In this document: positions 8,456 through 52,989 of the stretch, piece after piece
Layout: each line of letters begins with the position of its first letter
Numbering within the stretch: the stretch's first letter is position 1
Source of the DNA: Euglena gracilis
Taxonomy: Eukaryota
Direction: 5' to 3'
DNA length: 64,000 bases
Assembly: GCA_039621445.1 (NCBI GenBank)
Contig: CP154954.1
Span: 21,402,954 to 21,466,953, forward strand
Notes under the pieces: model-generated
Told to the model about the DNA's origin: nothing
The model's database searches: none
Seen by the model: only the letters and a program-made list of their open reading frames with translations
Made by a program: the position numbers and the translations under genes

Positions 8456-8473
8456 TTATTTTGGGTGGGGGGT

Positions 8474-28920: not shown

Positions 28921-29089
28921 TAGGGCTTAATGCACCTGTTTTGCCTATCAGGTATTCTCCATGTTGATGTGGTTGGTTGACATACCATAGGGGGGCCTCT
29001 GTGGGTCCCCCCCTTGATTGAATGATCGGAAATTGAAAAATATTCATTGGAGGGGTTCTTGCCCCTCCCTCCAAAAGGACCACTGTGGG

Positions 29090-29728: not shown

Positions 29729-32700
29729 TGGTAGCAGAGGCTTACGACCCTACCCCACACAACAACCCATTCCTCGCGGCCCACTCTGAGGTGAACCTTC
29801 AGATCACCGGCCGAGGCCCAGCACTCGGCGACCCCACCCCAGCGATGCCCGCAATCCCCTACGGGGGCCCCCCATCACATCTCCGTGGTAGCCCCCACGG
29901 GGATGCCCAATGCACAGCCCTAGCCCTGCTGTCCCCAAGTACAAATGATTTTGATCTCGATAGCCCTCGGGATCGAACCCCCACCCCACGGAAAGGAAAG
30001 TCAACCGGAAATCCCCTTTTCCCCCCGTTCCCATCGCTCGATGAAGCCCCATCAGTGCTGCCTCCACCCTTCTCCCCCACCGACTCCGACCCAAACCATC
30101 CCTCCATCTTCTCCATCCGTCCCCCACCCTCCTCCTCATACACCCCACATCCCCCATCCTTCAGCCCTCATCCCCCATCCTACTCCTCCCCGACATCCGA
30201 CGTCCCGGACCCAACCGACGGACCGCAGCCCCCCCAAGGGAGCCGAGACATGGGGCTGCGGACCCCGTTCTCCTCTGGGGCCACTCCCCGGCCCCAGAAG
30301 GTCCCGAGACTCTCCCCAGAGGAAGGGGGAGCAGAGGAGACGGAGCAGGAGCAGTGGGAGGAACAACGGTGGGAACCATGGGGGTCTGAAGGAGGATGGT
30401 GGCCTACTGAGGGTGACTACAAGCAGGACGAAGTGTTCAACGACATCAAGGCGACGGCGGCACAACAACAACAAGACATCGAGACAGTCAAACGACAAAT
30501 CACCGCATGCGACACCGCAGTCAATCTCGTGCGTGAGCAAGCAACCCGTGCGTATGACGTTTCGATGCGATGCGCGGCAGAGACTACAACGCTGCACGAA
30601 GCGGCGAGCGCCGCGCAAACCGCGATCACACAGCACGAGGTTCGCTTCGCGATGGTGGAACGAGATGTCCAAGGGTTGAAGGAGCAGATCAAGACCGAAG
30701 CGGCTTCATCGTCCTCCAAAGGTGCAACCGTCGACGCCGCGACAATCCACACTATCAGCAAACACGATGCGCGAATCACCGTCGTCGAAAGCGAGGTTCA
30801 AATGGTGAAGGAGCAGATCAAGATGGAGACAACAACGCGAAACAGCGACATCCGGTCCCTAGTGGAAATGATGCGGCGCGAACACGAGCAACAAGCAGCA
30901 AAAGGATCACCAAAACCGCAACAACCTATCCAGAACCCGGAGATGGAGGTGGCAATGAACAGAATGACAGTGCGGATCCAAGAAATCGAACAATCGAAAG
31001 ACCGACTGAAACGGGCGACGGTGGAGGAAGTGACGGTCATCAAGAAGGAGGTGGAGGACATGAAACAAGCACAGCAGACACAGGTGGCGGTGATGGCGAA
31101 GGAGATCCAGGAGATGAAGCAAAAACAACAGACATCGCAACCCCAACAACCGACCACATCCGACACTCTCATCCAGGATCTGATCTTCAAGGTGCAGGCC
31201 CTCGAGCAGAACAACAAGCAGTTCAAACGCGAGACGACGGAGTACATCCGGAAGCTCGAGATCCAGGTGCACGACTTCCACCACCTTGGGGCCAGGGTAC
31301 AAGCCCTGGAGACCTCCATGGCCCGATCCAAAGATGAGAAGGACAGAGACCTTCTCCGGCTGAGCAAGAAGGTCGAGGTGGCGGACGAAGCACTGGCAAG
31401 GGCCATGGAGCGGGTGGAGAACAAGATGCACGAGGAGATCAAACGACTTCAACTTCCACAACAACCACTCCAATCAACGGAAGAGGTGGAGGACGGCATC
31501 CGACAGCTGCGGGAGAGAGTGCTCCATGGAGAGGGAGCGTTCTCCAAGGCCATCAAGGAGACAAAGACACAGCTCAGGGAAATACAGAGGGACATCCAGC
31601 TAATCCGGCAACAATCACGCCCCAATGTGAGCAGCAGTGAACAGATGGAGCGAGAAGTGCAAGATCTGGCGAGACAAGTCGCACGGCTACAGCTCAGCAC
31701 AACAACGCCCATCCAGGAACCACACATCCCCCGTGAAGAAGTCCGTCAACGTGCAGAGGTCCACACATTCCCGTCCCAACCGTACCCAGAAATACAAGCA
31801 CGACAACAATCTTCGGTTGCGGTGCGACCGGAGCTCAGGTTGGCAAGAAAGAGCACGCGATCAATGGTGCAAAGTGAAGCAGTGACATCAATCCCAGTAC
31901 AAGCAGTGATGCCAATGACGCAAGTGACACAGCCACCCAGGAGCACAACCGGAACGGCGGTGCGGGGGGGGGAGGTGACCATCGCCCCAGTGCAAGCACA
32001 CACCGTCAGTCCACAACTCCAACTCCTACCCCCACAACTCCTGGAGTCCATCAGCGGCAGACATCCCGGAAGGTTCAGCGGGATTGCAGAGGACTGGCCA
32101 ATGTGGAGAAGAAAGTGGATTCCGTTTCTACGAGAAACGGAAGGGCTGATGCCAGCAATGACCGATGCACAGCGATTGGCGTTGCTGCGAAGTGCACTCG
32201 ACGAGGCCGGGGCTCTCCTGGTGGACCAGGAGCTGGAAGCCAATCCGGACCTCGGGTACGAAGAGTACTGGGCGCGCCTCGACCTGGAGTTCGGGGCGGA
32301 AGACAAGGAGGTCCTCCGCCGCAAGCTCCACCGGCTGAAGATGGCGCATGCGGGCAAGCCAACAGAGAAGTCGTGGCGTGAGCTCTACGCACAGATGATG
32401 ACCCTGGGTGGGCAACTTGGCGATGTCAGTGATGCAGAACTGAGTCGCCTGTTGATGAATGCGATCCCAAGGGATCCGTGGCGAAGGAAGCTGGCGATGG
32501 AGGAGGACAAAAGGACAGAGAGGGGCACCTTGGTGCTCGATGGGCTGCCAATCGATGTGGCCACAGAGGAGGTGGAGAACATGGTGCTGGCGGAGACCGG
32601 GCTGAGACCACTTGCCGTGCGACGGTTCGGCAAGCGAGTGAAGGTGACGCCGCAAGGGGAAGAGCATCGGCATGCCATCAAAATGCTCTATGACCGGCAG

Positions 32701-33369
32701 CGGCTCCAAGGCGGGAGCGTTGTCAAGGTCTCCCCGGACAATGCGGAGTTGGGGCCAAAAGAAATCAACGAGCTGATGACTCGTTGGCTCCGAACGGAGC
32801 AGCGGATCGCCAACGCGCCCGAGCCGCAGCAAATCTCCGGCCCCCAAAGGCAAGACCATCGGCCACAGCCGCGGTGGCACCGGGAAGTGGATGCAGAGTG
32901 GGATGGTGCGGAAGAAGAAGAGGAAGAAGCTGTCCGGCAAGTGGGCAAGGGAAACAAACGGCAAGATAAGAGGCCCCCGACACCTCCAAAGGTGTCTGAG
33001 AAGAAGGAGGAGCAACCGACAAGCACGGTGCAACCCGGACCACAGCCCACCCAAAGTGCACCGTCACCGCCACCGGCGGTGAAGGGAGGAGATCGACAAC
33101 CAGAGTGGTCATCATCGGGACAGTGGCAGAATGCCCCGTACCAAGGCGGAGCGTCGTGGAACAACTCATGGGATGCCAAAGGCAAGGGAAAAGGCAACCC
33201 ACAATGGTCAAAGGGAGGAGATGGCAAAGGTGGTGGACAAGACAAGGGTGGCAAAGGCAAAGGCGATGAGAAAGGCAAGAGCAAAGGAAAGGGAGATGGA
33301 AAAGGCAAAGGAGGAAAAGACGGCGGCCGAGGGAGGAGTGTCGCCGCAGTGGAGGAGTGGGAGGAGTGA
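29581..33369 (+). CDS. gag: G1 Gag (Pro-rich N-terminus, long coiled coil, capsid-like region, RRM-like domain, GK-rich tail)
   Basis: 1262-aa ORF; the HPGRFSG..EDWP.WRRKW block is conserved with G2. ATG 29581 lies inside the LTR; the first in-frame ATG after the PBS is 29845. Confidence 0.88.
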   Translation: MDPNPFQAPTELPRASVGAEPTRAPPLAGSVTRDPPCRNPSETGTPPGKLVAEAYDPTPHNNPFLAAHSEVNLQITGRGPALGDPTPAMPAIPYGGPPSHLRGSPHGDAQCTALALLSPSTNDFDLDSPRDRTPTPRKGKSTGNPLFPPFPSLDEAPSVLPPPFSPTDSDPNHPSIFSIRPPPSSSYTPHPPSFSPHPPSYSSPTSDVPDPTDGPQPPQGSRDMGLRTPFSSGATPRPQKVPRLSPEEGGAEETEQEQWEEQRWEPWGSEGGWWPTEGDYKQDEVFNDIKATAAQQQQDIETVKRQITACDTAVNLVREQATRAYDVSMRCAAETTTLHEAASAAQTAITQHEVRFAMVERDVQGLKEQIKTEAASSSSKGATVDAATIHTISKHDARITVVESEVQMVKEQIKMETTTRNSDIRSLVEMMRREHEQQAAKGSPKPQQPIQNPEMEVAMNRMTVRIQEIEQSKDRLKRATVEEVTVIKKEVEDMKQAQQTQVAVMAKEIQEMKQKQQTSQPQQPTTSDTLIQDLIFKVQALEQNNKQFKRETTEYIRKLEIQVHDFHHLGARVQALETSMARSKDEKDRDLLRLSKKVEVADEALARAMERVENKMHEEIKRLQLPQQPLQSTEEVEDGIRQLRERVLHGEGAFSKAIKETKTQLREIQRDIQLIRQQSRPNVSSSEQMEREVQDLARQVARLQLSTTTPIQEPHIPREEVRQRAEVHTFPSQPYPEIQARQQSSVAVRPELRLARKSTRSMVQSEAVTSIPVQAVMPMTQVTQPPRSTTGTAVRGGEVTIAPVQAHTVSPQLQLLPPQLLESISGRHPGRFSGIAEDWPMWRRKWIPFLRETEGLMPAMTDAQRLALLRSALDEAGALLVDQELEANPDLGYEEYWARLDLEFGAEDKEVLRRKLHRLKMAHAGKPTEKSWRELYAQMMTLGGQLGDVSDAELSRLLMNAIPRDPWRRKLAMEEDKRTERGTLVLDGLPIDVATEEVENMVLAETGLRPLAVRRFGKRVKVTPQGEEHRHAIKMLYDRQRLQGGSVVKVSPDNAELGPKEINELMTRWLRTEQRIANAPEPQQISGPQRQDHRPQPRWHREVDAEWDGAEEEEEEAVRQVGKGNKRQDKRPPTPPKVSEKKEEQPTSTVQPGPQPTQSAPSPPPAVKGGDRQPEWSSSGQWQNAPYQGGASWNNSWDAKGKGKGNPQWSKGGDGKGGGQDKGGKGKGDEKGKSKGKGDGKGKGGKDGGRGRSVAAVEEWEE
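29729..29740 (+). promoter_or_regulatory. Primer-binding site, tRNA-iMet type
   Basis: TGGTAGCAGAGG directly after the LTR, complementary to the 3' end of eukaryotic initiator tRNA-Met. Confidence 0.85.
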
Positions 33370-33879: not shown

Positions 33880-35170
33880 TGCAACAGCCCGACAACAAGC
33901 GACACGAAACCCGGCAGCCACCCCACGAGCATCATCCGCCACAAGAACCGCCATCTCCACCCCAACTTCCCCATCATCAACAGCTCCCACCAGAACGCTC
34001 CTCTAACCCGCTGCAGCCACCCCACGAGCATCATCCGCCACAAGAACCGCCATCTCCACCCCAGCATCTCCACCATCGACATCTCCCACCAGAACGGACA
34101 TGCAACCCGCAGCAGCCACCCCACGAGCGTCATCATCCACAAGAACCGTCATCCCCACCCCAACATCCCCTCCAACGACATCTCCCACCAGAACGGACAT
34201 CCGAACCCCGACCCCGACTGCAGCCGCCGCCACTAGAACCGACACCATCATCCAAGCTGCATCCTCCCCAACGACCACTCCCACCAGAACCTTCATCTTC
34301 ACCGCAACAACTACCTCGACAGCAGCTACCCCACAAACCCGCATCATCATCAGAGCGACATCTACTCCAACGTCAACATCCACCAGAACCTTCATCTTCT
34401 CCACAGCATCCACCATCGCCGCTGCCGCCACGAGAACCGACTCCATCATCTAAGCCACATCCACACCAACCACAACTCCCACGAGAACCTTCATCCACAT
34501 CACGACATCCGTCATCGCAGCCGCTGCCACGAGAACTGTCTTCATCTTTGCAGCGACATCCACCCCAACATTATCGTCCACCAGAACCTTCATCTTCTTC
34601 GCGACACCCACCTTCGCGGCTCCCACCACGAGAAACCGTCTCCGTCATCTCAGCGACACCCCACACCAACTTCGTCGCCCACAGGAACCGTTATCTCCTC
34701 CGCAACATCCACAATCGCTACAACCGCCACGAGAACCGATTTCGTCATCTCAACAGCATCCACATCAACCTCAACTCCCACCAGGACCGTCATCTGCATC
34801 ACCACGACAGCTGCCTCTGGAACCGTCATCAAAGCGACATCCTCATCAACGATATCACCCACGGGAACCGTCATCTACTTCGCGACATCCACTGCCACTA
34901 CAGCTGCCACTCGAACCGCCATCATCATCACAAGGAAACACCCCGCTACCTCTCCCACAAGAACCTTCATCTTCGTCTCAGCATTCACCTCAACAACAAC
35001 CTCCACTGGAACCGACTTCTACATCGCTGCATCCCCACCAACAACACCAACCACCAAGCGATTCCCAGCATCAACCACAAACGCCTCAAGAAGGATCAAG
35101 ACAACATCTACAACAAGAAACACCGCATCCACATCCAACATCCAGCAACATCACCCAAGCCACATCCACA
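33880..35170 (+). repeat. Low-complexity repetitive linker (Ser/Thr-rich in the DNMT frame)
   Basis: Repeated CCACCAGAACC-TCATC units; in frame with the DNMT apart from one TAA at 34451 (CAA in a sister repeat). Confidence 0.6.
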
Positions 35171-35173
35171 TCC

Positions 35174-38100
35174 GTGCTTCCAGGCTCGGTGACGCCAGAA
35201 GCAAAAGAAGAGAAGCACCAGCAGAGCCGCGGACGCGAGCTCTGGGCACTGGACCTGTTCTCCGGGACGGGCAGTGTCCGCCGGGCCCTCGAGGCAATGG
35301 GCTACCATGTCGTGAGTGTCGACTGGGACTCCCGGTGGCACCTTGATGTGGTGGCGGACATCCGGCGATGGGAGTACTGGCAGCAGTATTCCCCTGGTGA
35401 CTTCGATCTGGTGGCAGCATCCCCACCATGCACCGAGTACTCGTCGGCAATGACGACAAGGCCGAGGCGGTTGAGGGAAGCAGATGCGGTGGTGAGGAAG
35501 ACAAGGGAGATCATCCAGTACCTCGCTCCGGCGAAGTGGTGGATCGAGAATCCCCGGCACGGGCTGCTCCGCAGGAGGCGAGTAGTCCGAGACCTGGCCT
35601 TCGTGGACCTCGACTACTGCATGTTCGAAGACTTCGGCTACCGGAAGCCCACCCGGTTCTGGTTACCGAAGGAGATGGCCAGGGATCTCACCAACGTGTT
35701 GTGCGATGGCCGATGCAAAAGCTCGGTGCAAGGGGACAAAGGAAGACGGCGCCACCGGTTCCAGCTGGGAGGCAGGTGCCCCCACAGAGTGTCACGAGAG
35801 GAGGCGTACAGAATCCCAAGCGGCGTGGTGGAGTACCTGTGCCAAGGCACAGGACCACAAGCAGCAACCGAAGCAGAAGGAGCAGTGTCCAACAGCAAAG
35901 TGCAAGAGGTGACCATCAAGCCGTGGCACGTAAAGCCGGCCCGCTTTCGAGTGGGCAGGATGCAAAGGAGAGGAGGCGGATGCCAGCTGCTGCTGGAAGT
36001 GACCGTGGAAGCCAATGGTGAGTGCTACCAAGCAAAAGCGCTCATCGACACCGGAGCCCAGACGTCTCTCTGCCGGAGGGACCTGCTGCCAGAAGCCTGC
36101 TTCACGCAGTCCAGCAAGCCGCTGCTGCTCAAGACAGTGAGTGGCGAAGAGCTCAACGGAGGGAAGAACGAGGCCACCCTCACACTCTCCTTCGAGGCAA
36201 GGAGTGAAGAAGGCGTGCCAGTGGGCAGCCAGTGGAGCAGCACCGTCACCGCACACGACGGGGACATCGGCTGCGACCTCATCCTCGGATATCCGTGGTT
36301 GAAGGTCAATCGCCTCGACGTGCAGCCGTGGAGGGATGCACTCCAGCTGCATGATCCGCCACGGTGGGTGCTGTGGGCGCAAGAGGACAGCACCGTCCAA
36401 GGACAAGGAAGATCGACAGCAGCAGTGGTCACCCAGCAAGAGCCGCAACCACACCCAGCATCCTCAACCCAACATCCCCTCCAACAACCCCTGTCATCAA
36501 CGGCAACACAACATCAAGAGGAAGAAGAGTGTCTGTGGGAAGAAGAAGAAGATGTGGAGGAGCAAATGCTGGCATTGGTGCAGAAGATGCGGATGTGCAT
36601 TCCCGGAGAGATCCATGAAGCCGAGGAGGATGAAGGTGCGTCGGATGAGGAGATCTCCGACAACGAGGCACTCCAGGAAGCAGCAAGGCACATCCTCCAA
36701 GTGCAGGGCGAGCAGGTGGAAATCAGAGGCGTGGTGCAGTCAGACGACGAGCATCCAGATCCACTGGCATCCAAGCTCCGGCAAGAAATCCTGGATGAAT
36801 ACGCAGGACGCGTCTTCCGGGAAAGAGTGTGGCCAAATCCCCCAGCAAGAGGGACGCACGGCAAGGCCGTGCTCAGGCTGAAGCCAGGTGCAGTGCCAGT
36901 GGTGGGCAGAGTGATCCACCTGAGAGGAGAAAGGCATGATGCCCTGAGGGAAATGGAGGTAGAGTGCCGGAAGGACGGCAAGCTGGAACCCGGGAGGGGA
37001 CCGTGGAGAGCAGCCGCCTTCCCAATAAAAAAAAAGCGGGAAGTGGAGACTGGTGTGCGATTACGCGCTCACCAACAAGCAGCTGCAGCCGGACAGCTAC
37101 CCGCTGCCCCTCACCGAGGAGATCGTGGCCGAGCAAGCAAGATGTGAGCTGTTCAGCACAGTGGACCTCCGGGATGCCTTCCATCAAGTCGCCCTTGACG
37201 CCGAGTCCCGGCCAATCACCAACATCCAAATGCCGGGCGGCCTGTGGCAGTGGACTGTGGTCCCACAAGGGATCAATGTGGGCCCGGCACTGCTGCAACG
37301 GGACATCGATGCGACGTGTGCCGGACTGCAAAGGCACTCAAGGCCGTACTTTGATGACATCATCATCTGCACCAAAAGAAAAGTCGGCCAATCGGAAGAA
37401 GACTTCCTGAAGGCCCATGCCGCAGATGTCCGGGAGACGCTGGCAGCGCTCGAGCGCGACAAGTGGGTCTCGGACCCCAAGAAGGTGAAGCTGTTCATGC
37501 GCCGAGTGGAGTTTGTCGGCCATGTGCTGGGAGGAGGAAGAAGGTCACCAGCCCCAGGGAAGCTGGCAGCTGTCCAGAAGTGGGAGCTGCCCAAGAACGT
37601 CTCCAGCCTCCGGGCATTTTTGGGGCTGTGCAATTATTACAGCGGATACGTGCGAATGTTCGCCGAATATGCGGCACCGCTGCAGGAAAAGCTGAAGTTG
37701 CCCCGGGAGCTCGCCAAAGCAGGCAGCAAACACCCGGTGACATGGACCAAGGAGGAAGAGAAGGCATTCGAGCGCCTGAAGCAGGCACTCGTGGCGGACC
37801 TCGAGCTGTACCACATGGACCCCACCAAGCCGTTTGTCCTTCGGACAGATGCATCGGACTATGCGGTGGGTGCGGCGCTGGAGCAGTTCCCACTGGTGGA
37901 AGGACTCCCGTCCCTCGCGGACATCAAGCCAGGTGCCTCCATCCCCGTGGCCTTCATGAGCCGCAAGCTCACCGATGGCCAACGGCAGAAGTGGGACACC
38001 AGGGACAAGGAGACGTATGCAATCGTCTCCGCCCTGGACAAGTGGGCGCCGTACATTCTGGACAACGAGGTGCTGGTGCTGACAGACCACAAGAGCCTAC

Positions 38101-40509
38101 AAGGGTGGTACAAAGAGCATGTCGCAGGAGTCGGCCCACAAGGCCGCCGAGCAAGGTGGCATGCAAAGCTCAACAACTTCCGGCTGGAAGTCATCCATGT
38201 GCCAGGCCAAGCAAACACCATCGGAGATGCGCTCTCAAGATGGGCATATCCCGCCAGCCAAGGCTTCAAGGACATCACCTGGCATGGCACCGATCAAGAC
38301 ACGAAAGAAATGCAAAAGCAAATCCAGAAGGAGAAGGAAGAGGAGAGATCGTGTCCAAAGGCCACTCACCCAATCGACACAGCCACCGAAGAAAAGCAAG
38401 TACAAGCACAAAACCACCGAGAACACCGAAGTGGCAGTGACCACCCGAGCACAGATGAAAAAGAACCAGGCAGCACCAACAGCCAAGGGGTCCACCGACA
38501 TGGAGACGCCAAGCCCAGCACATCAAGGCACAGCAAGACCCACCAGACCCACCAGAGAAGCCAGCAGCATGCCAAAGAAAAACGAAAAGCCAGCAGTCCC
38601 ACAGACCAGCAGCAAATCAGCCAAGGACTCAGTGGAGGACGAGGAGGACGTGGTGGAAATCACAGCACCCACAGCAGAAACACCCAAGGAAAAGGATGCC
38701 ACAACATCAACCGCCGACCCAACAACCTCATCACCCCATCAACATCCCGACACCTCTATCATGCAGCCGCAACCTCCGTCTTCCAGCATCCCAGCACCCT
38801 TACCATCCTCATCATCACCCGACATCCCAACATCCTCCCCAACCACATCTGCCCCTGATCATCCCATCACCGACCCCGCAGACGCCGAGGAGGACATCGA
38901 CATCTACACCATGGACTGGGGACCGCACTACGAGAAGTGCCCCAGATGGCAAACCGTGTGGCACGACACCAAGATCGGAGACCCGTGGCCCAAGGGCTAC
39001 CGGGTTGAACACAAGAGGCTCCTGAAGGATGGGGTCTGGTGCGTGCCAACGGGCCTGGTGGGCAAGGTCCTCAGAGCACAGCATGCCCAAACGGGCCATT
39101 GGGCAGGCGAGATGCTGATGAAAGAGGCTCACCGTTTCTTCCAGTTCGCCGACGAGGAGGAGGCAAAGAAGCTGGCCGAGAGGATGCAGAAAATCTGCAG
39201 CTACTGCCAAGCAGTGGAACACCCCCACCAGCCGCTGCACCTGAAGGTGACACCGACACCGGTGCCGCCCCACATCATGACCAGCGTCTGCATCGACCTG
39301 TTTGTGATGCCCGAGGTGGAGTTCGAGGGCAAGCTGTTCAATGTCGTCGCGGGCTGCGTCGACAGACACAGCGGCTGGGTGGTGGCCACGGCACACCACA
39401 CGAGGGGGTTGACGGCAGCCAAGGTCGCCAAGGCGATGTACCGCAAGTGGTGGTCGCCCCATGGGATCCCAAGCGTGATCACCTCCGACAGGGGGCCCCA
39501 CTTCGCAGGAGCGTGGTGGCGAACCATGTGTGCCCTGCAAGGCGTGCGGCATGCTTACTCCCAAGCACACCACCACCCCGCCAACGGCAGAGCAGAGCAG
39601 ATGGGGGCACAGCTGCAGAAGCAGCTGCGGCACATCCACGAGGAGAAAGGAATTCCGTGGGTGGAAGCACTCCCCATCGCTGTCCAACGCCTCAACGACA
39701 AAGAAGGACCAAGCGGGTTGTCACCATATGAAGTGCTCTATGGAAGGCACCGGCCGTATGCTGGTGTCCCCTACGAGCCACCCACCAAGGCCGAAGATGC
39801 AGTCAGCTTCTTCGAGCGGCAGAAGCTGGTGGACAAGAAAGTCGCAGACACCGTGAACCAGCTGCATCAAAAAAAGACCGAGCAGTTGAACAAGCGACGC
39901 AAGGAGCTGCCACCACTGCAAGTGGGCAGCAAGGCGTGGTACCTGCGGCCAAGGGGCAGGCCAGGGGAGAAGCTGGAGAGCTACTGGCTGGGCCCATGCC
40001 GCGTGATGGAGAGGAGGAGTGAGCACGGCTACGTGGTGGAACTGCAGGAAGGAAGGATGCAAGAAGCACACCGGTGCCAGCTGAAGGCGTACACAGAGGG
40101 CGATGAAGAGCTGGGATCACCGGTGAAGCTATTCCACTTCAAGCAGGCCCGGTCAGATCCTCCAACCGGGATCGATGAGTGGAACGTCGAAAAAGTGGTG
40201 ACCCACCGAAGAACGCCAGGAGGAGAGTTGGAGTTCAAGGTGCAGTGGGAAGGTTCCACCGAACTCACCTGGGAACCACTGCACCATTTCTTCCACAGCT
40301 ACAGTCAGCCCATCGTTGATTACTTCCAGAAGAAGAACCTGAAGGAGGATGTCATGGCTCATCTGGCCAAACACCCAACAGAGGTGTCCAGGGTGTGGCT
40401 GTCAGCAGTAGAAGGAGGACCGAGGCAAGACAAGAAGTGGCCACTTGAGTGGGAAGAGCCCCCCACTGAGTGGACATGGGAGGAGAAGGAGGCGAACCAG
40501 CAGCTGTGA
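35174..40509 (+). CDS. pol: G1 Pol: DNMT, aspartic protease, RT, RNase H, integrase, chromodomain (frameshifts ~37030 and ~38400)
   Basis: PR LIDTGA (~36047); RT CDY..N, DLRDAFHQ, YFDD; RH TDASD...KE...TDH...DALSR; IN H-H-C-C, IDLF, TSDRG, NGRAE; chromodomain EWNVEKVVTHR...FKVQWEG...TWEP (~40177-40330). Confidence 0.95.
35240..35845 (+). CDS. C5-cytosine DNA methyltransferase domain in G1 Pol
   Basis: Motif I LDLFSGTGS, motif II VSVD, motif IV ASPPCTEYS (catalytic PC), motif VI IENP, motif VIII-like YRKPTRFW, C-terminal AYRIP. Confidence 0.92.
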
Positions 40510-41650
40510 GGGGCAGAAGCCCCCAGAACCCCAGCGACGGGGCCGCCAGCAAGAGGAGAGACAGCAAAACCGCAGAGACAAAAACACCCCACCAGCACAA
40601 GAGAAAATGGCGAAGAGCCACCACAGCACCCAACGAGAAACGGGAGAGACCGACACCAGCCGAGGGAACAGCAAGCCAGGAAGGGGAGAGCCCCAAAAAC
40701 GCCCAAGCCCACGCAGGCCAAAAGAGAGGCCCACCATAGGCGCCCGGTCGGGTCCACCTGGCCTAGACAACGGCAGAAGCGGCAACCTCAACATAGCTCC
40801 CACCTCCAACAGCACCCTCAGCTTCTAGCTTCCCCAACCTCTCCCCACAACCCATACATCAGCTCCGTACCCCAGTGCCACCCCAATCCCGCAGCCCCGC
40901 AGTTCCCCTCACCTCAGCCTCCAACCCACCGACCCGTCTCCCACCGCACCGCACCGCAGCACACACCGACCAGTCACCACGCAGCACCGCCCGAACACGT
41001 GCCCCCATGGCACGTCCCACCCCATGCACGGTACCATGCGACCCAACGCAGCCGTGCGTGCCCGTGTGGCACCGAGCCTGAGCCTGCCTCACCCAGGTCT
41101 GACGGTTCGTACCCAGGCTTCCCAGTGACCCGTCCCTCGCATCCCAGGCGGGTAGGGGGCCCACCACCGGAGGGACCGGCCCTAAAGGCCCAGCCGGCCC
41201 ACGGTGCGACCTGGCGGACCGGACCCAGCCGGCCGCCGCCCGTTTGCCCCGGCTACCCAAGCCTGAGGGGGGCGGGGGGGAAAGCGGAAAAGCCTGCTGC
41301 CAACCTGGGGTGAGTAAGGGGGTTTGGGCGGTACCATCGTTTTGTTCAATCTGCATCGTTTACCGTATTGTTTTATCTGCATCCTGGTGCCCATCGTCAG
41401 ATTTTCTCAATTCAACAGTGCAGCGCAGCTGTGGACAGTGCGGTTCGGCGAGCAGCACAGGAGGCTGTGGTTGACCCTGTGGCGAGGGTTGACCCTGGAC
41501 CGCACCTTTTCCCTGTCCCTCTCTTTCCTTTCCCGGACAACCGAACCCCCTAACCCCGGCCTCAAGGAAGGCCACGGCACCCCGGCCCAGGTGGGAAGGG
41601 GCGCCAGGCAACAGCGGGGGGCAAGAGCAGGCACGCCACCCGCAGAGCAT

Positions 41651-42722
41651 GCACACCCCAGGCGCCACGAGCGAGCACCAGCCAGCCAGGGGCCGGGGCC
41701 CCCCCCCCAGCCGGCAGACCCAGCCAGCCAAAGGCAGGGCCCCCCCCCCCCCAGCCAGCCAACCAGCGGGACCCCCCCCCCCGAGCCAGCCCGGGAGGGG
41801 ACACCCAACCAAAACCCCCCCAGGCAGCCAAAAGGCCCGGGAGAGCCCAGGAGAGCCAGAGCCAAAGACAGGAGACCAGCCACCCCCACCCCCACCGCAG
41901 GACGAGCGGGGAACCCAGAGCCAAGCAGCAAGACGAGCCCCACGACAAAGGCCCCACGAACCACGAGGGGCAAACCAGAAGCGGGGCAGACCAACGAGCC
42001 CAGAGGGGCCAAGCCAGCAAAGGGGCCCGGAGGGGGCAGGCAGGCCAGACACCCCCCGGCCCAAGAGAAGGGCAGCCCAGAGAGCGCGCACGCCCCCCCC
42101 CAGCACAGGGAAGGGCAGCCACGCCGCGCGCACCCCCCCCACACACAAGGCAGCCCAAGACACACAGCGAGCACGCCCCAGCGCACAAGGGGCAGGGCAG
42201 CCCAAAGCCGCGCACAACACGCGAGCCCCCCCCAGCGCACAACGGGAGGGGACCGCACGCGCCCAAGGCAGCCCCCCCCCCCACGGGGGGAACCAGACCC
42301 GGCAGACCCCCCCCCGGGCACGAAGGGGGCACCAAACCCCCCCAGGGCAGCCCAAAAGAAAGAAACCGCCCCCCCCCGGGAACGGCAAAAAAAAAAAAAA
42401 AAAAAGCGCCCCCCCCCCAGGGGGCGGCCAAAAAAAAAAAAAAGCCCCCCCCCCCCCCAGGCGCCGCCAAACAAAAAAAAAAAAAACCGCCCCCCCCCCG
42501 GGGGCGGCCCAAAAAAACAAAAAAAACCCCCCCCCCCCCCGGGCGCGGCCAAAAAAAAAAAAAACCGCCCCCCCCCCCAGGGGGCGGCCAAAAAAAAAAA
42601 ACCGCCCCCCCCCCAGGGGGCGGCCAAAAAAAAAAAAAAAAAACCCCCCCCCCCCAGGGGCGCCAGGCCAGGAGCACGCACACCAGCCAAACCGACCAGC
42701 CAAACCCAGGAGGCAGCCCGCC
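41651..42722 (+). other. 1,072-nt tract with no T on the + strand
   Basis: Last T at 41650 and next T at 42723 by direct reading. Confidence 0.9.
42360..42662 (+). repeat. Tandem repeat of GGGGCGGCC-A(n)-CCGC(n) units (~35-40 bp, about 8 copies)
   Basis: Alternating A-tracts and C-tract/G-tract hairpin modules. Confidence 0.85.
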
Positions 42723-43184
42723 TCTGCCACACGGAGGCCTGCCCCCAGCTGGATTGTCCGCCGCGGGCAGACGATCGAAGGGCTGAGAGCTCCAACCAGG
42801 CTTCCGTGGAGGCAAGCGGCGCGGCCCAGGCCGAGCGAGGCACGCCCCCCCCCGGCCAAGGGCGAGCCCAAGCACGCCCCCCAGGCCCGCCGGGGAGCGC
42901 ACATGCCTTGCACACCCAACCCGAGCCCACAGAGCCCCGCCCGCAGCCGGTTCCACCGCTGCGGCGGGAAGCCACACAGCGCTCCGCGCCCGCGGCTCTG
43001 TGGAGGGACGGCGGAGCCAAAGCCGACCCCCAGGCCGAAGTTCCCTCAAAACGGCCCCATCATTGCTTCCCTCAGTTATAACGTTCCTTTCCTTTTTTTG
43101 TACATAGTGCACTCGATGCCTGGTGCGCACCGCTCCCGCCCCCCACCGCCGGGGTAAGCCAAAGGCAGGCGAGGCCGGCGCCTC

Positions 43185-43198
43185 GGTAGGAAGGGGAG
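43185..43198 (+). promoter_or_regulatory. Polypurine tract of G1
   Basis: GGTAGGAAGGGGAG abutting the 3' LTR. Confidence 0.85.
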
Positions 43199-43838
43199 TG
43201 TGGGCGGCGGCGGCCTGAGCGCATGCGCACACAAAGTAGCGGAACCCTCCGCTACTACCTGACCACCCCCTTTCTGCATTTGCCTTCCGCAGGCTCCCTT
43301 GTTTCCATGGATTCAATCTGATTTGTGCATTGGAATTCAAGTTTTCAAGTTCAATTGTTCAATTCAATCAAATACAAAGATTTCAAAGAAACCAAAGGAA
43401 ACTGCCAAAGGAGAAATTACCTTCAAGGAGATCAAAGAAAACCTCAAGGAATTGGCCTACCAGGAGCGCCCCAAGGCAATTTCAAAGGTACTTGCTGGAT
43501 TTGGCTGGGCTAAGTGGCTATAAGGGTGGGAAGCACCCCCTGAAAACCCCTAGCACCCAGGCTTTTCCGCCCCCCCCTCTGTCCCCCCTCAATTTCCCCC
43601 CCTGCGAGGGCCCACCTAAGCGGCTCCGCAGACCCCCAGAGGCATCGCAGGAGGCACCCCCCTCCACTCCGCCGCCGGGAATACTAAAAAATGGATCCCA
43701 ACCCATTCCAAGCACCCACGGAGCTTCCCAGGGCCTCCGTGGGGGCTGAGCCCACCCGCGCACCCCCCCTCGCCGGATCCGTGACCCGGGACCCACCCTG
43801 CCGGAACCCCAGCGAGACCGGGGCCCCCCCTGGGAAAC
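43199..43838 (+). repeat. G1 3' LTR
   Basis: Direct repeat of 29090-29728. Confidence 0.95.
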
Positions 43839-44842
43839 CCTGGGAAATCCCTTTTCCTCCTGGGGCTGGGTCATTGAAAGGGCTACTGTGGGTCCCTTTT
43901 CCGCCTTTTTTTGGCAGAGGGCCACTGTGGGTCCCTCGGGGGATTTCTCCAGCATGAAATTCCTTAGCTTCTTGGTGGCCACTGTGGGTCCACCCTGCTG
44001 GTCTCCAAGGTTTCCATGTGTATTTTTTTTCCATAATCCATCTGTTGGTCTTCTAGGCCTTGATTTCTTCTTGGCCTCCAACCCCACTGGAAATCTGGGG
44101 GGGCTGCTGTGGCCCCCCCCCCATTTTTCCCTTGAGAGGGGCTCTTGTGCAAGATTAATTTGTGGGGTTTGGGCAGACATTTTCTGCCACTTCCTGAGGG
44201 GATTTGCTTGTAAAACTGGCCCCCATGGCCCCTGTAGTGTTGACCTCCTTGGCCTTGATTCCATCTCCCCATCCTTTGGCCAGTTTGTGTACAGGCGACT
44301 GGGCGCCTTTGGGGAGATGCCCCACATGTGTGGGCTGTGGTTGTTCAATTGTGGAGCATTTTGGGCCCCCATGGCCCTTCCTTTGCCCACCAAGGGCTGG
44401 GGCTGACTGCTTTTTTCTGGGCCTTCTGGCCACAGTGGGGGTTTGGCTGGGAAATTTCTGGGGTGGGGGTCTGGGGGGGGGGAAGGGCCACGGTTTGCCA
44501 AGTGTTGACCGCATCTCCAAGTTCTCCAGCTTTTGCGGCCACTGCTCCAGGACGTCCGTGGCCATGCAATTCCAATTTCTCCTCCACTGCATTGCTCATT
44601 GAAGTCAAATTGAAAATTGATAAGTGAATTCTCAATTGATATCCATCTGGGTCGTGCTCCTCTTGGTATTGAATTGATATTGACTTCTTTTCTCGGTTCT
44701 TCTTCGTTCTCGAACTGCCTTCCTTTCTTCTGGGTGTAGCAGGGCAAGTTAGGAATCAGCCAACACCGGCCAAAAAAGCCACTAAGCGGGCTTCCTAACC
44801 CACCGCAGCGAACAATCGCACAACAAACCGCCGGCGAGCAAG
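43839..44842 (-). mobile_element. 5' fragment of a second DIRS family (C): distal left ITR plus gag-like region; probably continues at 29089-28920
   Basis: The reverse complement aligns with 50704-51535; CCACTGTGGGT-type repeats occur on both sides of G1. Confidence 0.75.
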
Positions 44843-46745
44843 TCGGACTCCCACGACAGAGGCAGGGGGAGGAAGGGACCAAGAGGGCGATGCACAAGAA
44901 GATGGTGAGGACCTGCTTTCCTTGCCGGCTGTTCTGTTCTGGTGTGTTTGTGCGTGTGCGGGCGTGCTTCTTACTGCGCCTTTGTTGCCGGAGTTGGCGA
45001 TGATGAGGCTCCTCCGACACCTTGGCGAAGCTGAACCGTCGTGGCCCCGCCCCCCCCCTCTCCCATTGCTGCTTGGTCGGAGGTCCCCTTTCTGGTTGGG
45101 ATGTCTTTCTTTTTCTGCTGATTTTTTGGGTGGGAGGGTTGGGCTCACCATCTTCTTGTGCTTCGCCCTCTTGGTCCCTTCCTCCCCCTTCCTCTGCCGT
45201 GGGAGTCCGAGACCATTCGGGCTCCGCACTGCGAGATGGTGAGGTACTGTGCACCCCCCTTTGGGCCATAATTGTTTGAATTTTTGATACGACCCCGAGT
45301 CGCAAATAATGAGCTTGGAAGGCCCCAAAATTTTTCCACTGACCCAACTGCTGGACTTCTTCCACTTGCAAACCAGCATTTTTCCACCATAAAACCCCAG
45401 CCTCTCTGGTGCTGTGGGGTTTCCAGTGGGTGGTGTCCACCCCCCCCCTCTTGCAGAATTTCTTTGGTGAGGGAATTCACCCTTTCTGATGTCAAGGTCT
45501 TTTACCATCCAAAGACCATAACAAATTATTTTTGTGTCCAACCATGTGGGCTGTCCTTTCCACATGCTCTTGCAATAAATGCCAGGGGCTTATGAGGGGG
45601 GTGTGTGGCAAATTCAAAACTTCCTCCCATCTTGGGAATTGCCACCCTTTCCTTTGCAATAAAATGAAAAATGTTTCTCCCACGAAACTTGTTTTTCGCT
45701 GTGTCCTGGCTAGATCAACCCCCCTGTGGAGGGCCAAAAGCCTCCAACAGATGATGAGTCTGTTTCTGAGCTCTTTCACAGAAAGGTCTGAGAGAGGTGT
45801 TGAATTCCTCAAGATGTTTTCTAGGAAATCAGTGGGGTCCCAAAAATGGGCATACTTGCAGACACTGGAATTCCATTTCCTTTTCAATGGAGCCAGAAGG
45901 GGTGAAAATCTCAATGACCCAAACCCTGGGAGTAACAAGGCTGCTGCATATGCATTTCGTGCAGCATTGATGCTGTGAACAGCAAGATGAAGGATGGCTT
46001 CAGCCATCTTGTGGATTGTGCAATCCTGCAGGGGCACCCCTTTGTGCAACAACTGGCCCACCAATGCCCTGAAGGCTGAGTCATATCTTTTGACATTTCC
46101 CAGATTTTTTATGTAAGTGTCGATACTGGACATCGAAACTTCCTGGGATTGTAATATTTGCCTGACACAATCAAGCAGGCCAAATTCCACCTTGGGGGGG
46201 GGCATCTTCTCCCCCCAGCAGTTGGTGAATAGACCCCATTGGGGGGGTACAGGCAAAACTTCGCTGCCTGGCTGCCTGATTGACATTAATTGGCGCCACC
46301 ATGATGTCGAAGCCCAGTGGGGTACGATGAACAGACATGTTAGGTCTGGGTTTAACACTAATCTCTGAACCCATTGGGGAATGATGCTGCAGGGAGGGTT
46401 GGCATAAACTGAGGGGAGGCCCCTCAAGTCTGCCCTCAAGGCATCCACCAGCAAGGCTCCTTGGTGGGGGTATCGACAAACGAACTTGGGGAATTTTTTG
46501 TTGCTGGGGGTGCAAAACATGTCCACTTCTGGGGTTATGTCCATTCTGAAGAACTGAAGAATTTGGTGAAAGATGTTCAGGTTTAGGGTATAATCCCCTG
46601 GGTCCTTTTGCTCCCTGGTCAGGGAGTCTGCCAATTGTTCTTTTGTGGGAACCCAAACCACTTGCAAATTGGTTTGTTTTTCCTGACAATGATACAACAG
46701 AGGTTTTAGGATGGAATTTAGGTGTGGCTTTTTGCCACCCCCCTT
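44843..46745 (-). mobile_element. DIRS1-type retrotransposon, 3' half (element B): RNase H end, MTase-like domain, tyrosine recombinase, ICR, right ITR
   Basis: WVPTKEQLADSLTR, VDMFCTPSNKK...VYANPP, LHRGVDL, HSTR, GQW, HY. Right ITR plus extension 44843-44998; ICR 45144-45245. Confidence 0.92.
45250..46745 (-). pseudogene. DIRS RNase H / adenine-MTase-like domain / tyrosine recombinase (frameshifted)
   Basis: ORF 45492..46796 plus short downstream frames carrying the YR catalytic R, HxxR, W and Y residues. Confidence 0.88.
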
Positions 46746-47099
46746 GATGGCGCGAAGCGCCGGGGACGGTGAAAGTTTTCCCTGAAAAATTACCAAAAAA
46801 CCCCAATTTCACCCACAAAAATGATGAAAGCTCAAAAATTTCCAGATTTTTGAAGGTCAAAGAACATGGTAAGTGTCAATTTACACCAATTTATACATGG
46901 CGCGAAGCGCCGAAGGAAAAAAATTAGCACTCATGGGAACCTAAAAAAATGTTGTTTTTTCGGGCCCGGGTTGGTCAAGAAAAAATCCAAAAATAAGACC
47001 CCCCCAAAAATAAGACCCCCCCTGGAGGCTTCCAGCAACGGACCCAAAAATAAGACCCGGGTCTTTTTTTGGGGGGGGTTTATGTCTTCCAACAACAAG

Positions 47100-51540: not shown

Positions 51541-52989
51541 TTTTCATCCTGGGGCTGGGTCATTGAAAGGGCCACTTTGGGTCCCTTTTCACCCCTTTTT
51601 GTGGCAGAGGGCCTCTGTGGGTCCCTCTGAAGACCCTTTCTTTGGTTCGAACTTTCTTCGGATCCTTCAGCGGAGGCCGGCTGTTTTTTGAGGGGGCTGC
51701 CGGCCTTCGAAGTCAATATATTCAAGCTTTTCTTTTTTTTGCTCTTGAGCTTTTCCAAATGAACCTTCAAACTGATTTTTTGCCAAATTCAGGTTCTTCC
51801 AAGCACAAAAAATTAATTTTTTTTTGTAGTCTTCACCAGTACATTGTATGGACAAAGAACCCTGTGTGTGAGGTTGAGTTAGAACTTGGGTGGTTCGATT
51901 TGGGGCTATGCTTAACTAGGAATTTGCTCTTTTCCTACCGACCGGAAAAATTCCGCCGGCTGGTCCAGGAATTTTCGCCAGTTAATGCCGGAAAGGCCAA
52001 AATAGGGGTTCAGGCTTCAAAGGCCTACCCACAGAACCTTTTCCGAACTTTTAATTCGACTGAAATCCAAAAATGGGAGTTTCAGTGATTTTCCAAGCCC
52101 CAGGACCAATTCAGGTCAAATTATTGGTTAAGGACCACTTACCACTTAGAAAAATCTCAGGGAGATTCCGAAAAACGAAAGTAAAATGAGGGGTCCGAAC
52201 GAAAGAAACAAGTTGGGGGGGCACTTTCACCCGTAGTTTGTGTTGCGGATGGTCAGAATGCGTAACATTCTAATAACTTTCGAGTGTCGAAGGAGAAAAG
52301 CGAGGGGGAAGACGGCCCGAGGGGCACGCTAACCCCCATGTGGCACGGTGCGGCGCACGGTGCGACGGTGCGGGCAACGGTGGCAGCGGTCAGCCGCGTG
52401 CGTCCGCCGCATCACCAACGGGGGGAGGGGCTTTAGAGACCCCGTACCACCCCCACAACCACCGTTGTGGGTCTCCTCCGTGATTTCTCCGCGATGAACC
52501 GCGTGTGTGGTCGTGTGTTATTGCAATGTGGCTGGGGGTAAAAAAAAAAGCAAACGGGGGGGGTTGTATTGGGATAGGTCGTCTCACAGCCCGTCTTGCC
52601 AAGGGTTGCGTTTCAACTCGAAAGTTGCACGGCAAGCCTTAACAAGCTCAAATGCACACACTCCCCTTCCTGATTGTCCGCTTTTTGTTGTCCTTAAGGA
52701 ACTTTCCGACTTTTTTGAACGTCTTTTTTTTGGCGTCTTTTAGAACCAAACCACCTTTGTGGTTTACTGCTTTTTTTTGTTGTTGGGCAACCTTTTTTTG
52801 TTGGTTTCCACCTCTTTATCCAACCGTTTCCACCATTTATTGATTGCTTTTGTGTGTGTTCGTGTGTCTCTCGATCTGTTACCTGCTATAGACGAGTACC
52901 AAAAATCAAAAGATCGAAAAGAAAGCGACACCGCAACCCGCGGGACCGATTCCCCGCGAAACTTGGCGCCTTGAAAAAAAATGAAAAAA

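Follow-up and report, generated by a model that had tools for sequence, protein, structure and literature searches.

Why would more than a kilobase of a eukaryotic genome do without one of the four bases on one strand? The question is raised by a window of 64,000 nt of Euglena gracilis DNA (the whole stretch analyzed here, numbered from its first letter), where a preliminary description had reported zero T on the + strand for 1,072 nt. A composition count confirms it: the T-free run covers exactly 41651-42722 and is made of 464 C, 325 A, 283 G, and 0 T, with a GC skew of -0.24. The opposite (-) strand of the tract is A-free; among its 325 T are runs of 7-19 nt. After the tract, the longest T-free runs in the window have 128 (40609-40736), 100 (40508-40607), and 96 nt (42808-42903), and all of them lie in the tail of the same element, an LTR retrotransposon that we call G1. 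The longest runs lacking A, C, or G anywhere in the window have 61, 84, and 69 nt, respectively.

The sense strand of G1 has 13.8% T, and 7-9% at third codon positions. The absence had been described as far beyond ordinary skew, and shuffling bears this out. The longest T-free run averages 59.8 nt and never exceeds 115 nt in 200 dinucleotide shuffles of the whole element, and 100 shuffles of the 64-kb window give a mean of 52.8 and a maximum of 76 nt. The log10 probability of a run of 1,072 nt is about -69 at the T fraction of the element (0.138), and about -34 at T = 0.07, the lowest third-codon-position T within the element.

The retrotransposon and its 3' tail

The tract lies in the 3' region of G1, ahead of the 3' LTR, as had been proposed, and more precisely in the non-coding tail between the integrase ORF and the polypurine tract (PPT). 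G1 is a 14.75-kb Ty3/gypsy, chromovirus-like element on the + strand, and its identity and anatomy are nearly certain. It has two long terminal direct repeats, the 5' LTR (29089-29728, 640 nt) aligning with the 3' LTR (43198-43838, 641 nt) with 638 of 640 positions identical and one 1-nt indel; since the LTRs are 99.7% identical, this copy is young. A PBS-like sequence that begins with TGG, as read from the sequence, abuts the 5' LTR (29729-29740), and a purine run, the 3' PPT, adjoins the 3' LTR (43188-43198). No target-site duplication was found for G1.

The domains of G1 follow the order protease, reverse transcriptase (RT), RNase H, integrase. The protease match is weak (E 7.7e-3). RT and RNase H (37029-38858) match RVT_1 (E 1.8e-22) and RT_RNaseH (E 5e-24), and the integrase (38083-40509; rve, E 4.4e-9) has a chromodomain-like C-terminus (Chromo, E 2e-4) and a TGA stop at 40507-40509. 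For the chromodomain (PF00385), with a cut-off of 25.1 bits, G1 scores 21.6 and G2, a second element of the window, 24.0; PF00385-bearing relatives (P0069, P0087) align in this part of G1 at 40-44%. A cytosine-DNA-methyltransferase-like domain lies 5' of the protease (35243-35932; PF00145, E 1.4e-3, 18.6 bits for a cut-off of 22), where a PF00145-bearing relative (P0063) aligns at 41% identity. In relatives at 45-67% identity, the protein that contains RT also bears Dam or DNMT Pfam domains; G1 showed no Dam domain. ORF1 (29578-33369; 3-base periodicity chi2 175.8) has no Pfam match and may be gag-like, a weak lead given by Atlas look-alikes of Gag/PNMA that score 0.77-0.78, below the reliability line. 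Elsewhere in the window, 10 ORFs at 1-25 kb have no Pfam match, and one tRNA-like gene was found.

The tail alternates between T-poor blocks and islands of T. It opens with a complex block of 229 nt (40508-40736) that has a single T, at 40608, in agreement with the very low T previously noted at 40510-40735. Its k-mer content is close to that of shuffles (z 0.5-1.2), and it lacks codon periodicity (p = 0.43). A second copy of the 11-mer of the polypurine tract gives it an internal PPT-like site (40678-40688), which is repeated at the equivalent place of G2 (63667-63677); chance would give 0.11 occurrences of this 11-mer in the window, which has 4. Just 5' of the T-free domain comes a T-rich island (41318-41540), in which 50 nt contain 9-20 T and a polypyrimidine run occupies 41506-41535. 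The tract itself (41651-42722) is followed by an 85-nt T-containing island and by a further T-free block of 96 nt (42808-42903), which holds part of a 32-nt direct repeat (42822-42882). At 43093-43106 a T7, the only sense T-tract of at least 5 nt in the tail, precedes GTACATAG; a loose end of the public run X2 has a TGTAAA variant there. Searching the tail sequence of G1 across the window gave only self-matches, and no Rfam family was found in the window at the gathering level, nor in 40400-43900 at E values up to 1.

Repeats, coding capacity, and strand asymmetry of the tract

The tract is a decaying minisatellite with a period of about 40 nt (37-41), made of homopolymer blocks (C of 6-14, G of 3-6, and A of 7-19 nt), and tandem repeats thus lie between the end of pol and the 3' LTR. 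Its most regular part is an array of 40-41-nt units (42354-42660), in which Tandem Repeats Finder counts 6.8-7.8 copies with 81-82% matches. The unit consists of an A run (7-19), CCG, a C run (9-14), sometimes an A, a G-rich stretch, and GCC, and it forms hairpins in the predicted fold. In the decayed periodic part (41651-42353) C-runs of 6-13 nt stand mostly 30-46 nt apart, the tract as a whole having 19 C-runs of at least 6 nt at this spacing. Decayed units can be traced from 41699, and by their 8- to 10-mers (z -4.4 to -6.8) the 5' 700 nt of the tract repeat themselves more than shuffles do. A core of 237 nt (41815-42051) differs: like the 229-nt block upstream, it is not repetitive beyond its own composition. 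Being complex and non-repetitive, these two pieces, with no T and one T respectively, cannot stem from slippage. The tract had been called mostly non-repetitive, which is right for this middle portion and wrong for the array and for the periodic 5' ~700 nt.

No stop interrupts the tract in any of the six frames, so that ORFs of 410-598 aa cross it. The lack of T accounts for these stop-free ORFs on both strands, as previously proposed, because every stop codon or its complement requires a T on the + strand. The 3-base periodicity of the tract is negligible (chi2 2.6, p = 0.96), against chi2 of 80-176 in the real ORFs of the element: the tract has no codon structure and is non-coding. It is very improbable that it encodes an ORF3, a basic, proline-/lysine-rich, disordered protein starting at the ATG 41649-41651. 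Such an ORF would have 502 codons, from 41649 to 43157, a polypyrimidine run and an AG stand some 100 nt upstream of the ATG, and T-free codons specify hydrophilic residues only. However, the T of this ATG is the last one before the tract, and a long ORF that follows the last ATG before a T-free run arises automatically from the lack of T. The six frames are equally open, 3-base periodicity is absent (p = 0.93-0.96), the repeat period of 37-41 nt is not a multiple of 3, and frame-breaking indels occur at high share among copies, so that the frame is not kept. Neither Pfam nor a homologous-protein search with the ATG frame gave a match or homologue. A full HMMER search with another + frame, the frame-2 ORF of the tract, found no homologue either, its single match being spurious and of low complexity (P0172, E 7e-5), and nothing was found in a homologous-protein search with the - strand ORF of the tract.

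The two strands of G1 differ sharply in signals made of T. TTTTT occurs 4 times in sense and 93 times in antisense across the element, and the sense strand has no TGTAA and one AATAAA. The element has 42 terminator-like matches (27.0 +/- 4.8 in shuffles), 40 of which are on the - strand, the best-scoring ones in the array. There, on the - strand at 42365-42661, eight T-tracts measure 7-19 nt (six of these 12-19 nt), and six of the eight are immediately preceded by a GC hairpin with a predicted stem of up to 11 pairs, the combination expected of a candidate terminator. These long antisense T-tracts are confined to the 3' third of the tract, and 19 G-runs of at least 6 nt are spread over its - strand.

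Variation between copies and the origin of the missing thymine

The absence of T is not produced by the assembly in the part of the tract that public reads cover. We compared the locus with Logan contigs of 4 public runs from 4 studies, one of them from another year and with another organism label. In the runs X1 and X2, 5,184 and 3,145 contigs, respectively, map to 40300-43300, and the depth in the tract is comparable to that in the flanks. The X15 contig of 308 nt matches 41899-42205 with 1 difference and 1 gap, and the X20 contig of 601 nt extends to 41679. The tract is therefore real and inherited by the bulk of the copies of the family, which is very high-copy and shares it. Its length varies between copies. 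The 5 indels listed in the tract are all of 1-2 nt, one of them (-1 nt at 41815) reaching 61% of the depth in X1 and 32% in X2, and the contigs of X1/X2 contain seven joints, each in one low-depth contig, that leave out 33-175 nt within or at the tract.

Of 81 variant places, 40 were listed. Among the places listed, 5 are in the tract and none of them changes to T (0/5), against 9 of 25 rows with a non-T reference letter in the flanks, a difference that is not significant (about 0.1). No T-bearing major variant was found inside the tract among these places. Rare minor forms of the tract do contain T, which is therefore callable within it. It had been argued that T in the reads would betray a consensus artefact, and the contigs of the four runs have no listed C>T or A>T places in the tract. 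That T is really present and miscalled, through assembly or base calling, has thus a very small probability. Homopolymers, which are difficult for long-read assemblies, abound in this region, no library is recorded for the public runs, and 42421-42622 has depth 0 in all four runs, the contigs skipping repeats there. Yet the contigs of four runs from four studies match both flanks and tract, and T is freely called in the adjoining islands.

Retroelements can lose a base through strand-specific hypermutation, which is G-to-A for APOBEC3-type and A-to-G for ADAR-type enzymes, and in HIV-1 APOBEC3 editing is strongest in the zone upstream of the 3' PPT. In G1, T could have been turned into C on the + strand by deamination of adenines in the minus-strand cDNA or in antisense RNA, and the effect would be strongest just 5' of the polypurine tract, where the minus strand would stay single-stranded longest. 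We consider this improbable. The tract does lie 0.5-1.5 kb upstream of the 3' PPT, and its C content (43%) equals the mean of C + T in the element, as read off a 250-nt profile rather than computed. G1 also gains A relative to G2 in a strand-specific manner (A/G 156 vs 63, A/C 143 vs 61), so asymmetric mutation acts on its lineage. The expected T-to-C polarity is however missing: among the places listed there are 7 T>C and 6 C>T in each of X1 and X2, and the comparison with G2, which stands for subfamilies about 30% different and whose 3' tail lies beyond the window, gives 62 T/C and 70 C/T over 3,270 aligned sites. Zero T gives way abruptly at the borders to islands with 9-20 T per 50 nt, and a conversion of 100% over 1 kb exceeds known editing. 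The + strand has kept its A (30%), which excludes the editing of duplex RNA. The suggestion of exhaustive A-to-G hypermutation of an antisense or duplex RNA is hence not borne out. We know of no natural eukaryotic enzyme that deaminates adenine in single-stranded DNA. We also considered a T-to-C pressure acting on the whole element and dropped it: third-position A and T are both at 5-7% in G2, and what sets G1 apart from it is a surplus of A rather than a shortage of T.

More distant relatives did not provide further copies for comparison. A metagenome scan with the integrase ORF confirmed no relative, one with the RT alignment gave 80 loci at 23-46% identity, a scan of viral contigs for relatives gave none, and one of prokaryote genome contigs gave 2 distant loci. 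These 82 loci (~548 kb) are too distant to serve as sisters of G1. Their longest sense T-free run has 62 nt, at a median sense T of 0.267 (minimum 0.167), and in the first 80 the longest run without any one base has 174 nt.

The tract may also escape a base modification, either a host thymine mark (5hmU or base J) directed against transposons or adenine methylation, from which the zone would be barred. As one strand is T-free, neither strand can carry ApT or GATC, and the tract lacks both by construction. Precedents exist: 5hmU is reported to be enriched on the transposons of a dinoflagellate, where its inhibition raises their transcription (PMC11572971), raised 6mA is reported for DAM-LTR elements in a preprint (10.64898/2026.05.21.726589), and relatives of G1 bear Dam or DNMT domains. 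But thymine as such is not avoided: 325 T stand on the complementary strand of the tract, eight T-tracts of 7-19 nt among them. The rest of the element keeps its T, with 51 GATC and 514 AT. The proposal that a thymine modification is avoided comes out weak, and we hold an escape from modification of either kind to be improbable as well.

Another explanation is that the spacer grew by repeated slippage or duplication of short seeds in which T was absent by chance, the sense strand being already poor in it (13.8%, and 7-9% at third codon positions), and was then spread by one recent master copy without any selection on T. We regard this as a serious possibility, if an unlikely one. The copy is young, the family very high-copy with a shared tract, and the tract is made of minisatellite and homopolymers. 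Similar sequence is common around it, the window having 88 C-runs and 73 G-runs of at least 8 nt, and motifs of the tract recur elsewhere in the window. There, however, the same motifs adjoin T-runs. The 237-nt core and the 229-nt block have probabilities of ~3e-8 and ~1e-6, respectively, at T = 0.07. Besides, the 7 regular units of the array differ by at least 17-61 substitutions, none of them to T; for at least 17 substitutions this has a probability of ~5e-4 at the spectrum of the flanks, a value that depends on the alignment. The zero among the array substitutions and the near absence of T in the two complex pieces suggest that a filter against T may have acted.

The cause of the absolute absence of T can only be inferred, and the reading we prefer, with some reserve, is that slippage expands the tract, a hypervariable 3' spacer, and that the sense RNA is kept free of U there. 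The spacer would lengthen and shorten by replication slippage or by template switching during reverse transcription, an origin also proposed for the 3' UTR repeats of plant Tat/Ogre elements, which are put down to abnormal strand transfers (PMC7004042). The composition of its sense strand would be under a constraint that keeps T out. A U-free genomic RNA would gain no start codon, stop codon, T-tract, or U-containing 3'-end signal before the 3' LTR. The complementary strand, with its 19 G-runs and its eight T-tracts, of which six follow a GC hairpin immediately, would oppose antisense transcription, and the spacer would in effect serve as template in one direction only. Yeast RNA polymerase II is terminated by T-tracts in the non-template strand, with no need for a hairpin (PMC7615648), and a mammalian counterpart is reported (PMC11610936).

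Selection against U-dependent termination or 3'-end signals appears to be the best of the causes previously put forward. It fits the strand asymmetry of the element (TTTTT 4 vs 93), and it does not on its own account for the absolute zero. Selection of this kind explains a depletion better than a complete absence, because none of the proposed signals requires every T to be removed. Since C- and G-homopolymers and motifs of the tract are found window-wide, much of the texture of the spacer may reflect a slippage habit of the host or of the reverse transcriptase rather than design.

A stronger version, in which the lack of T is itself what is selected, seems to us rather unlikely. The tract would then be a three-letter cis element, free in sequence and length, with the sole rule of no U in the sense RNA and no T in the coding strand. 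It might work as a one-way transcription gate that lets the sense polymerase pass and confronts the antisense one with T-tracts, hairpins, and G-runs; the antisense polymerase being blocked, less double-stranded RNA would be made. Alternatively, some host factor that targets U or T might fail to see the stretch; a nuclease, a thymine hydroxylase, or an adenine methylation that depends on ApT or GATC would be examples.

Comparison with known elements and implications

Variable tandem repeats in the 3' tails of LTR retrotransposons are already known. The closest parallel may be the Tat/Ogre lineage of Ty3/gypsy, with hypervariable tandem repeats in the 3' UTR (Macas et al. 2009, cited in Vondrak et al. 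2020, PMC7004042). In the part of that account available, the repeat region lies 3' of gag-pol and 5' of the 3' LTR, as in G1, its short tandem repeats vary in sequence and length between copies, again as in G1, and they are presumed to result from abnormal strand transfer or from illegitimate recombination in the course of replication. The differences are that the G1 tract is three-lettered, with no T in 1,072 nt, while the same part of PMC7004042 describes no such base exclusion, and that its units are ~40-nt homopolymer blocks. G1 is also chromovirus-like with a DNMT-like domain, and its chromodomain-like end argues for another lineage.

In this respect G1 resembles DAM-LTR/EpiLTR (10.64898/2026.05.21.726589) and KnitGypsy-Dnmt3 (PMC5890265), which, in the accessible parts of both accounts, are Ty3/gypsy elements with features shared by G1 and G2, namely a chromodomain-like end and a DNMT-like domain. 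It differs from what these parts describe in that its DNMT and chromodomain matches are below the Pfam cut-offs and that it has no Dam domain, and they contain no description of 3' tails or of a T-free tract.

Other likenesses are more partial. Hypermutated retroelements share with G1 the extreme depletion of one base on one strand, in a zone upstream of the polypurine tract; G1, however, lacks T, which would need A-to-G on the minus strand, and it has sharp borders and no polarity relative to sister copies. The array on the - strand looks like a series of intrinsic terminators made of a hairpin and a U-tract, with a GC hairpin ahead of six of its eight T-tracts of 7-19 nt and nothing of the kind in sense; here it is a consensus match, within a eukaryotic transposon. 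In retroviruses, the interval from the last ORF to the 3' LTR can contain cis-acting RNA elements, such as the constitutive transport element and the direct repeats of Rous sarcoma virus. These occupy the same genomic place as the tract and are likewise repeated and structured, but the tract matches no Rfam family in sequence or structure.

Among the papers listed by our search of the literature, none describes a kilobase that is free to vary in both sequence and length and yet excludes one base. Should slippage have produced the tract by accident, it is, however striking, a low-complexity region of an ordinary kind, and the six 'ORFs' of 410-598 aa that it offers to annotation are empty. If the exclusion is selected, it would be a purely compositional constraint on the RNA or on one DNA strand of a transposon, and would point to a host process that reads single U/T residues, or to an orientation-specific control of transcription inside a mobile element.

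The retrotransposon and its 3' tail

The element concerned, G1, is delimited by direct repeats at 29089-29728 and 43198-43838 (638 of 640 positions identical), with a PBS-like sequence led by TGG directly after the 5' LTR and a purine run directly before the 3' LTR. Its + strand encodes a 3-base periodic ORF1, a DNMT-like stretch at 35243-35932 (sub-threshold in Pfam), a protease (weak Pfam match), a reverse transcriptase with RNase H (Pfam E 1e-22 to 1e-24), and an integrase (Pfam E 4e-9) with a sub-threshold chromodomain-like end. Relatives carrying PF00145 and PF00385 align to the weak DNMT-like and chromodomain-like regions. A cousin, G2, at 54-64 kb, has about 69% nucleotide identity to G1 and the same layout, its tail lying beyond the window end. 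LTR identity, PBS and polypurine tract, domain order and the alignments of relatives identify G1, at the sequence level, as a young Ty3/gypsy, chromovirus-like retrotransposon. It is related to the methyltransferase-carrying LTR elements described recently (preprint 10.64898/2026.05.21.726589; PMC5890265).

Several other features of these elements were observed. The DNMT-like domain, found in G2 at 58198-58857, lies upstream of the protease in both elements; relatives combine Dam or DNMT with reverse transcriptase, and an ORF of another element (45492-46808, - strand) has a weak Dam-like match (E 3.6e-3). The reverse transcriptase of G1 shifts frame relative to its relatives and G2 at the exact point where AATAAA is followed by A9 (37024-37057), which is probably a homopolymer indel, real or due to assembly error. 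In both elements, the RNase H and integrase ORFs use different frames and share 0.8-1.0 kb (38083-38858 in G1, 61191-62229 in G2). The shared segment of G1 passes through A-rich sequence whose T content is 6-7% (38251-38750); the arrangement may be a side effect of low T content, or else a frameshift that has been conserved. Within G1, a C-rich ORF contains 48/99-nt tandem repeats (34022-34805; 7 copies, 60-77% alike).

The pol ORF of G1 stops at 40509, and the 2.7-kb tail extends from there to the 11-nt polypurine tract at 43188-43198. More precisely, the + strand shows a purine-rich block of 229 nt (40508-40736) with a single T, a C-rich stretch (12% T), a T-rich island (41318-41540) with up to 20 T per 50 nt and a polypyrimidine run at its end, the T-free tract (41651-42722, 40% of the tail), an 85-nt T-containing island, and a further T-free block of 96 nt. 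The borders between zero-T and T-rich segments are sharp. The only sense T-tract of at least 5 nt in the tail is a T7 run followed by GTACATAG (43093-43106), which we take to resemble UGUAA, the polyadenylation signal used by green algae; a contig of the public sequencing run X2 ends there in a TGTAAA variant. The window contains four copies of the polypurine 11-mer, where 0.11 would be expected: at the 3' end of the G1 tail, at 52661-52671 on the - strand, and at 40678-40688 (G1) and 63667-63677 (G2). The G1 copy, within the 229-nt block and just 3' of the pol stop, has its equivalent site occupied in G2, a hint that an internal (central) polypurine tract is conserved.

Extent and reality of the T-free tract

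The tract has no T over 1,072 nt (C 464, A 325, G 283). Other T-free runs in the 64-kb window are at most 128, 100, and 96 nt long, all three within 1.2 kb of it, and the longest runs free of A, C, and G reach 61, 84, and 69 nt. The longest T-free run averaged 59.8 nt (maximum 115) in 200 dinucleotide shuffles of the element and 52.8 nt (maximum 76) in 100 shuffles of the window. Given the element T fraction of 0.138, such a run has a log10 probability of about -69; with T set to 0.07, the lowest value at third codon positions of the element, the figure is still about -34. The preliminary description was accurate on the T-free run, on the T-poverty of the block at 40508-40736, and on the location ahead of the 3' LTR.

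Contigs from public reads agree with the assembly. Part of 39500-44300 is present in 20 public runs, and contigs of four were placed on 40300-43300 (5,184 for X1 and 3,145 for X2). Summed word depth in X1 and X2 is comparable between tract and flanks, so that most copies of this highly abundant family carry the tract. A 308-nt contig of X15 on 41899-42205 has one difference and one gap. Among the 40 of 81 variant places listed, five fall in the tract (one A>C, two C>A, two A>G), without any change to T; the flanks have 25 listed rows with a non-T reference letter, of which 9 change to T. Minor T-containing forms are present at low depth, hence T is callable there. Within the array, the most regular segment (42421-42622) has zero cover in all four runs, with repeats skipped. 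A consensus artefact, which the preliminary description named as a possible refutation, is unlikely outside this segment, and as an explanation of the tract it is very improbable.

No stop codon interrupts any of the six frames within the tract, and the resulting ORFs measure 410-598 aa; the cause is the missing T, as had been supposed for the stop-free ORFs on both strands. Codon-phase composition shows no 3-base periodicity (chi2 2.6, p = 0.96; p = 0.10-0.43 in other tail parts), whereas the real ORFs of the element give chi2 values of 80-176. Repeat periods are 37-41 nt, and the five indels listed in the tract measure 1-2 nt, one of them, at 41815, accounting for 61% of X1 and 32% of X2 depth. 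The tract ORFs lack Pfam matches, and searches in three reading frames found no homologues. We reject a protein-coding tract on these grounds, as a most improbable reading.

Repeats, slippage, and possible strand-specific mutation

The tract had been called mostly non-repetitive. This holds for its 237-nt middle (41815-42051), as repetitive as shuffles, like the 229-nt block (z -1.4 to +1.2), but not for the rest of the 5' 700 nt, which taken whole exceed shuffles (z -4.4 to -6.8, 8- to 10-mers), nor for the final 300 nt. These form a tandem array of 40-41-nt units (6.8-7.8 copies, 81-82% matches) in the order A-run, CCG, C-run, (A), G-rich stretch, GCC, several of which are predicted to fold into GC hairpins. 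The tract has 19 C-runs of 6-14 nt, mostly spaced 30-46 nt apart.

Slippage and duplication account for the array and the homopolymers. A neutral slippage accident in a T-poor, recently amplified master is a possible, if rather doubtful, origin for the whole tract: the window has 88 C-runs and 73 G-runs of at least 8 nt (up to 39 and 43 nt) and many CnGn and AnTn palindromes, and tract motifs recur in 1-25 kb, there mixed with T-runs. However, the two complex pieces of 237 and 229 nt, with zero and one T, respectively, are T-poor without being repetitive. Moreover, the 7 regular array units are at least 17 substitutions apart and 16 aligned units at least 61, none to T. The probability of 0/17 is about 5e-4 at the flank spectrum of 9/25, a value that hangs on the alignment of low-complexity units. 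Hence, T has probably been filtered out, whether through selection or by a sequence-making process unable to produce T.

The 1-25 kb region has features of its own. Long homopolymers are exceptionally dense in the window as a whole and densest there (e.g. 22050-22950), which may reflect slippage habitual in the host, a repeat dispersed in the region or, in part, the assembly. It holds a G-rich tandem array at 8082-8449 (12/18-nt spacing, 15 copies; GC skew +0.35 in 8001-9000), a dispersed repeat of a few hundred nt (6996-7341, 11857-12202, 22068-22879; 64-92% identity), and a 98% identical 174-nt pair (4762-4935, 17767-17940). Ten ORFs gave no Pfam match. ARAGORN called a tRNA-Gly(CCC)-like gene (16724-16821); at 98 nt, it probably contains an intron or was called falsely.

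Hypermutation would remove T directionally. The APOBEC3 editing gradient in HIV-1 lies upstream of the polypurine tract, a position that the tract matches, but minus-strand hypermutation there would involve the wrong base and lacks the expected polarity, which makes it improbable. X1 and X2 each have 7 T>C against 6 C>T places, and over 3,270 aligned sites G1/G2 differences are T/C at 62 and C/T at 70. The proposed A-to-G editing of antisense or duplex RNA fails on this absence of T-to-C polarity and on the A retained by the + strand, which duplex-RNA editing would also have stripped. Between G1 35243-40087 and G2 58264-63243, A in G1 faces G at 156 sites (63 in reverse) and C at 143 (61 in reverse). 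Third positions contain A at 0.18-0.25 and T at 0.07-0.09 in G1, and A at 0.05-0.06 and T at 0.05-0.07 in G2. By this comparison, the G1 lineage gained sense-strand A at the cost of G and C, without losing T, a pattern suggestive of mutation or selection acting on one strand.

It is similarly improbable that the tract escapes a thymine mark or forms a zone free of adenine methylation: 5hmU reportedly silences transposons in a dinoflagellate (PMC11572971), yet the - strand of the tract carries 325 T.

A spacer of three letters

We tentatively favour, at somewhat less than even chances, a hypervariable 3' spacer of the Tat/Ogre kind that excludes U from its sense strand; confidence in the identity and anatomy of the tail is far higher than in this cause. 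A polymerase on the sense strand would meet no T-tract or terminator-like signal ahead of the 3' LTR, and an antisense one would meet many. The asymmetry of signals fits. TTTTT occurs 4 times in sense and 93 times in antisense across the element, whose sense strand has no TGTAA and one AATAAA. A consensus scan assigns 40 of its 42 terminator-like sites to the - strand, with the top-scoring ones inside the array, where a GC hairpin directly precedes 6 of 8 - strand T-tracts (7-19 nt). The - strand of the tract also carries G-runs (GC skew -0.24). In yeast, RNA polymerase II is terminated by T-tracts in the non-template strand (PMC7615648), and T-tract-directed termination has reportedly been seen in mammals as well (PMC11610936). 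Such a tail might act as a one-way gate for polymerases. Against the U-free spacer, long T-tracts are confined to the 3' third of the tract, no proposed signal demands loss of every T, and the contrast of 0/5 with 9/25, among the variant places listed, is not significant.

In plant Tat/Ogre elements, tandem repeats downstream of pol differ from copy to copy and have been attributed to abnormal strand transfers (PMC7004042). The G1 tail is likewise a hypervariable spacer between pol and 3' LTR, and its tract is restricted to three letters, without T. For comparison, about 548 kb in 82 distant Ty3/gypsy loci were scanned on the sense strand: median T is 0.267 (minimum 0.167), the longest T-free run is 62 nt, and no 500-nt window falls under 12.2% T. 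The T content of G1 and G2, about 14%, is unusual against these loci, and the tract is far outside their range. Among the papers listed by a literature search, none described a retrotransposon 3' spacer with three-letter composition. Hypervariable 3' spacers of retrotransposons are known; within that literature, the three-letter composition is new.
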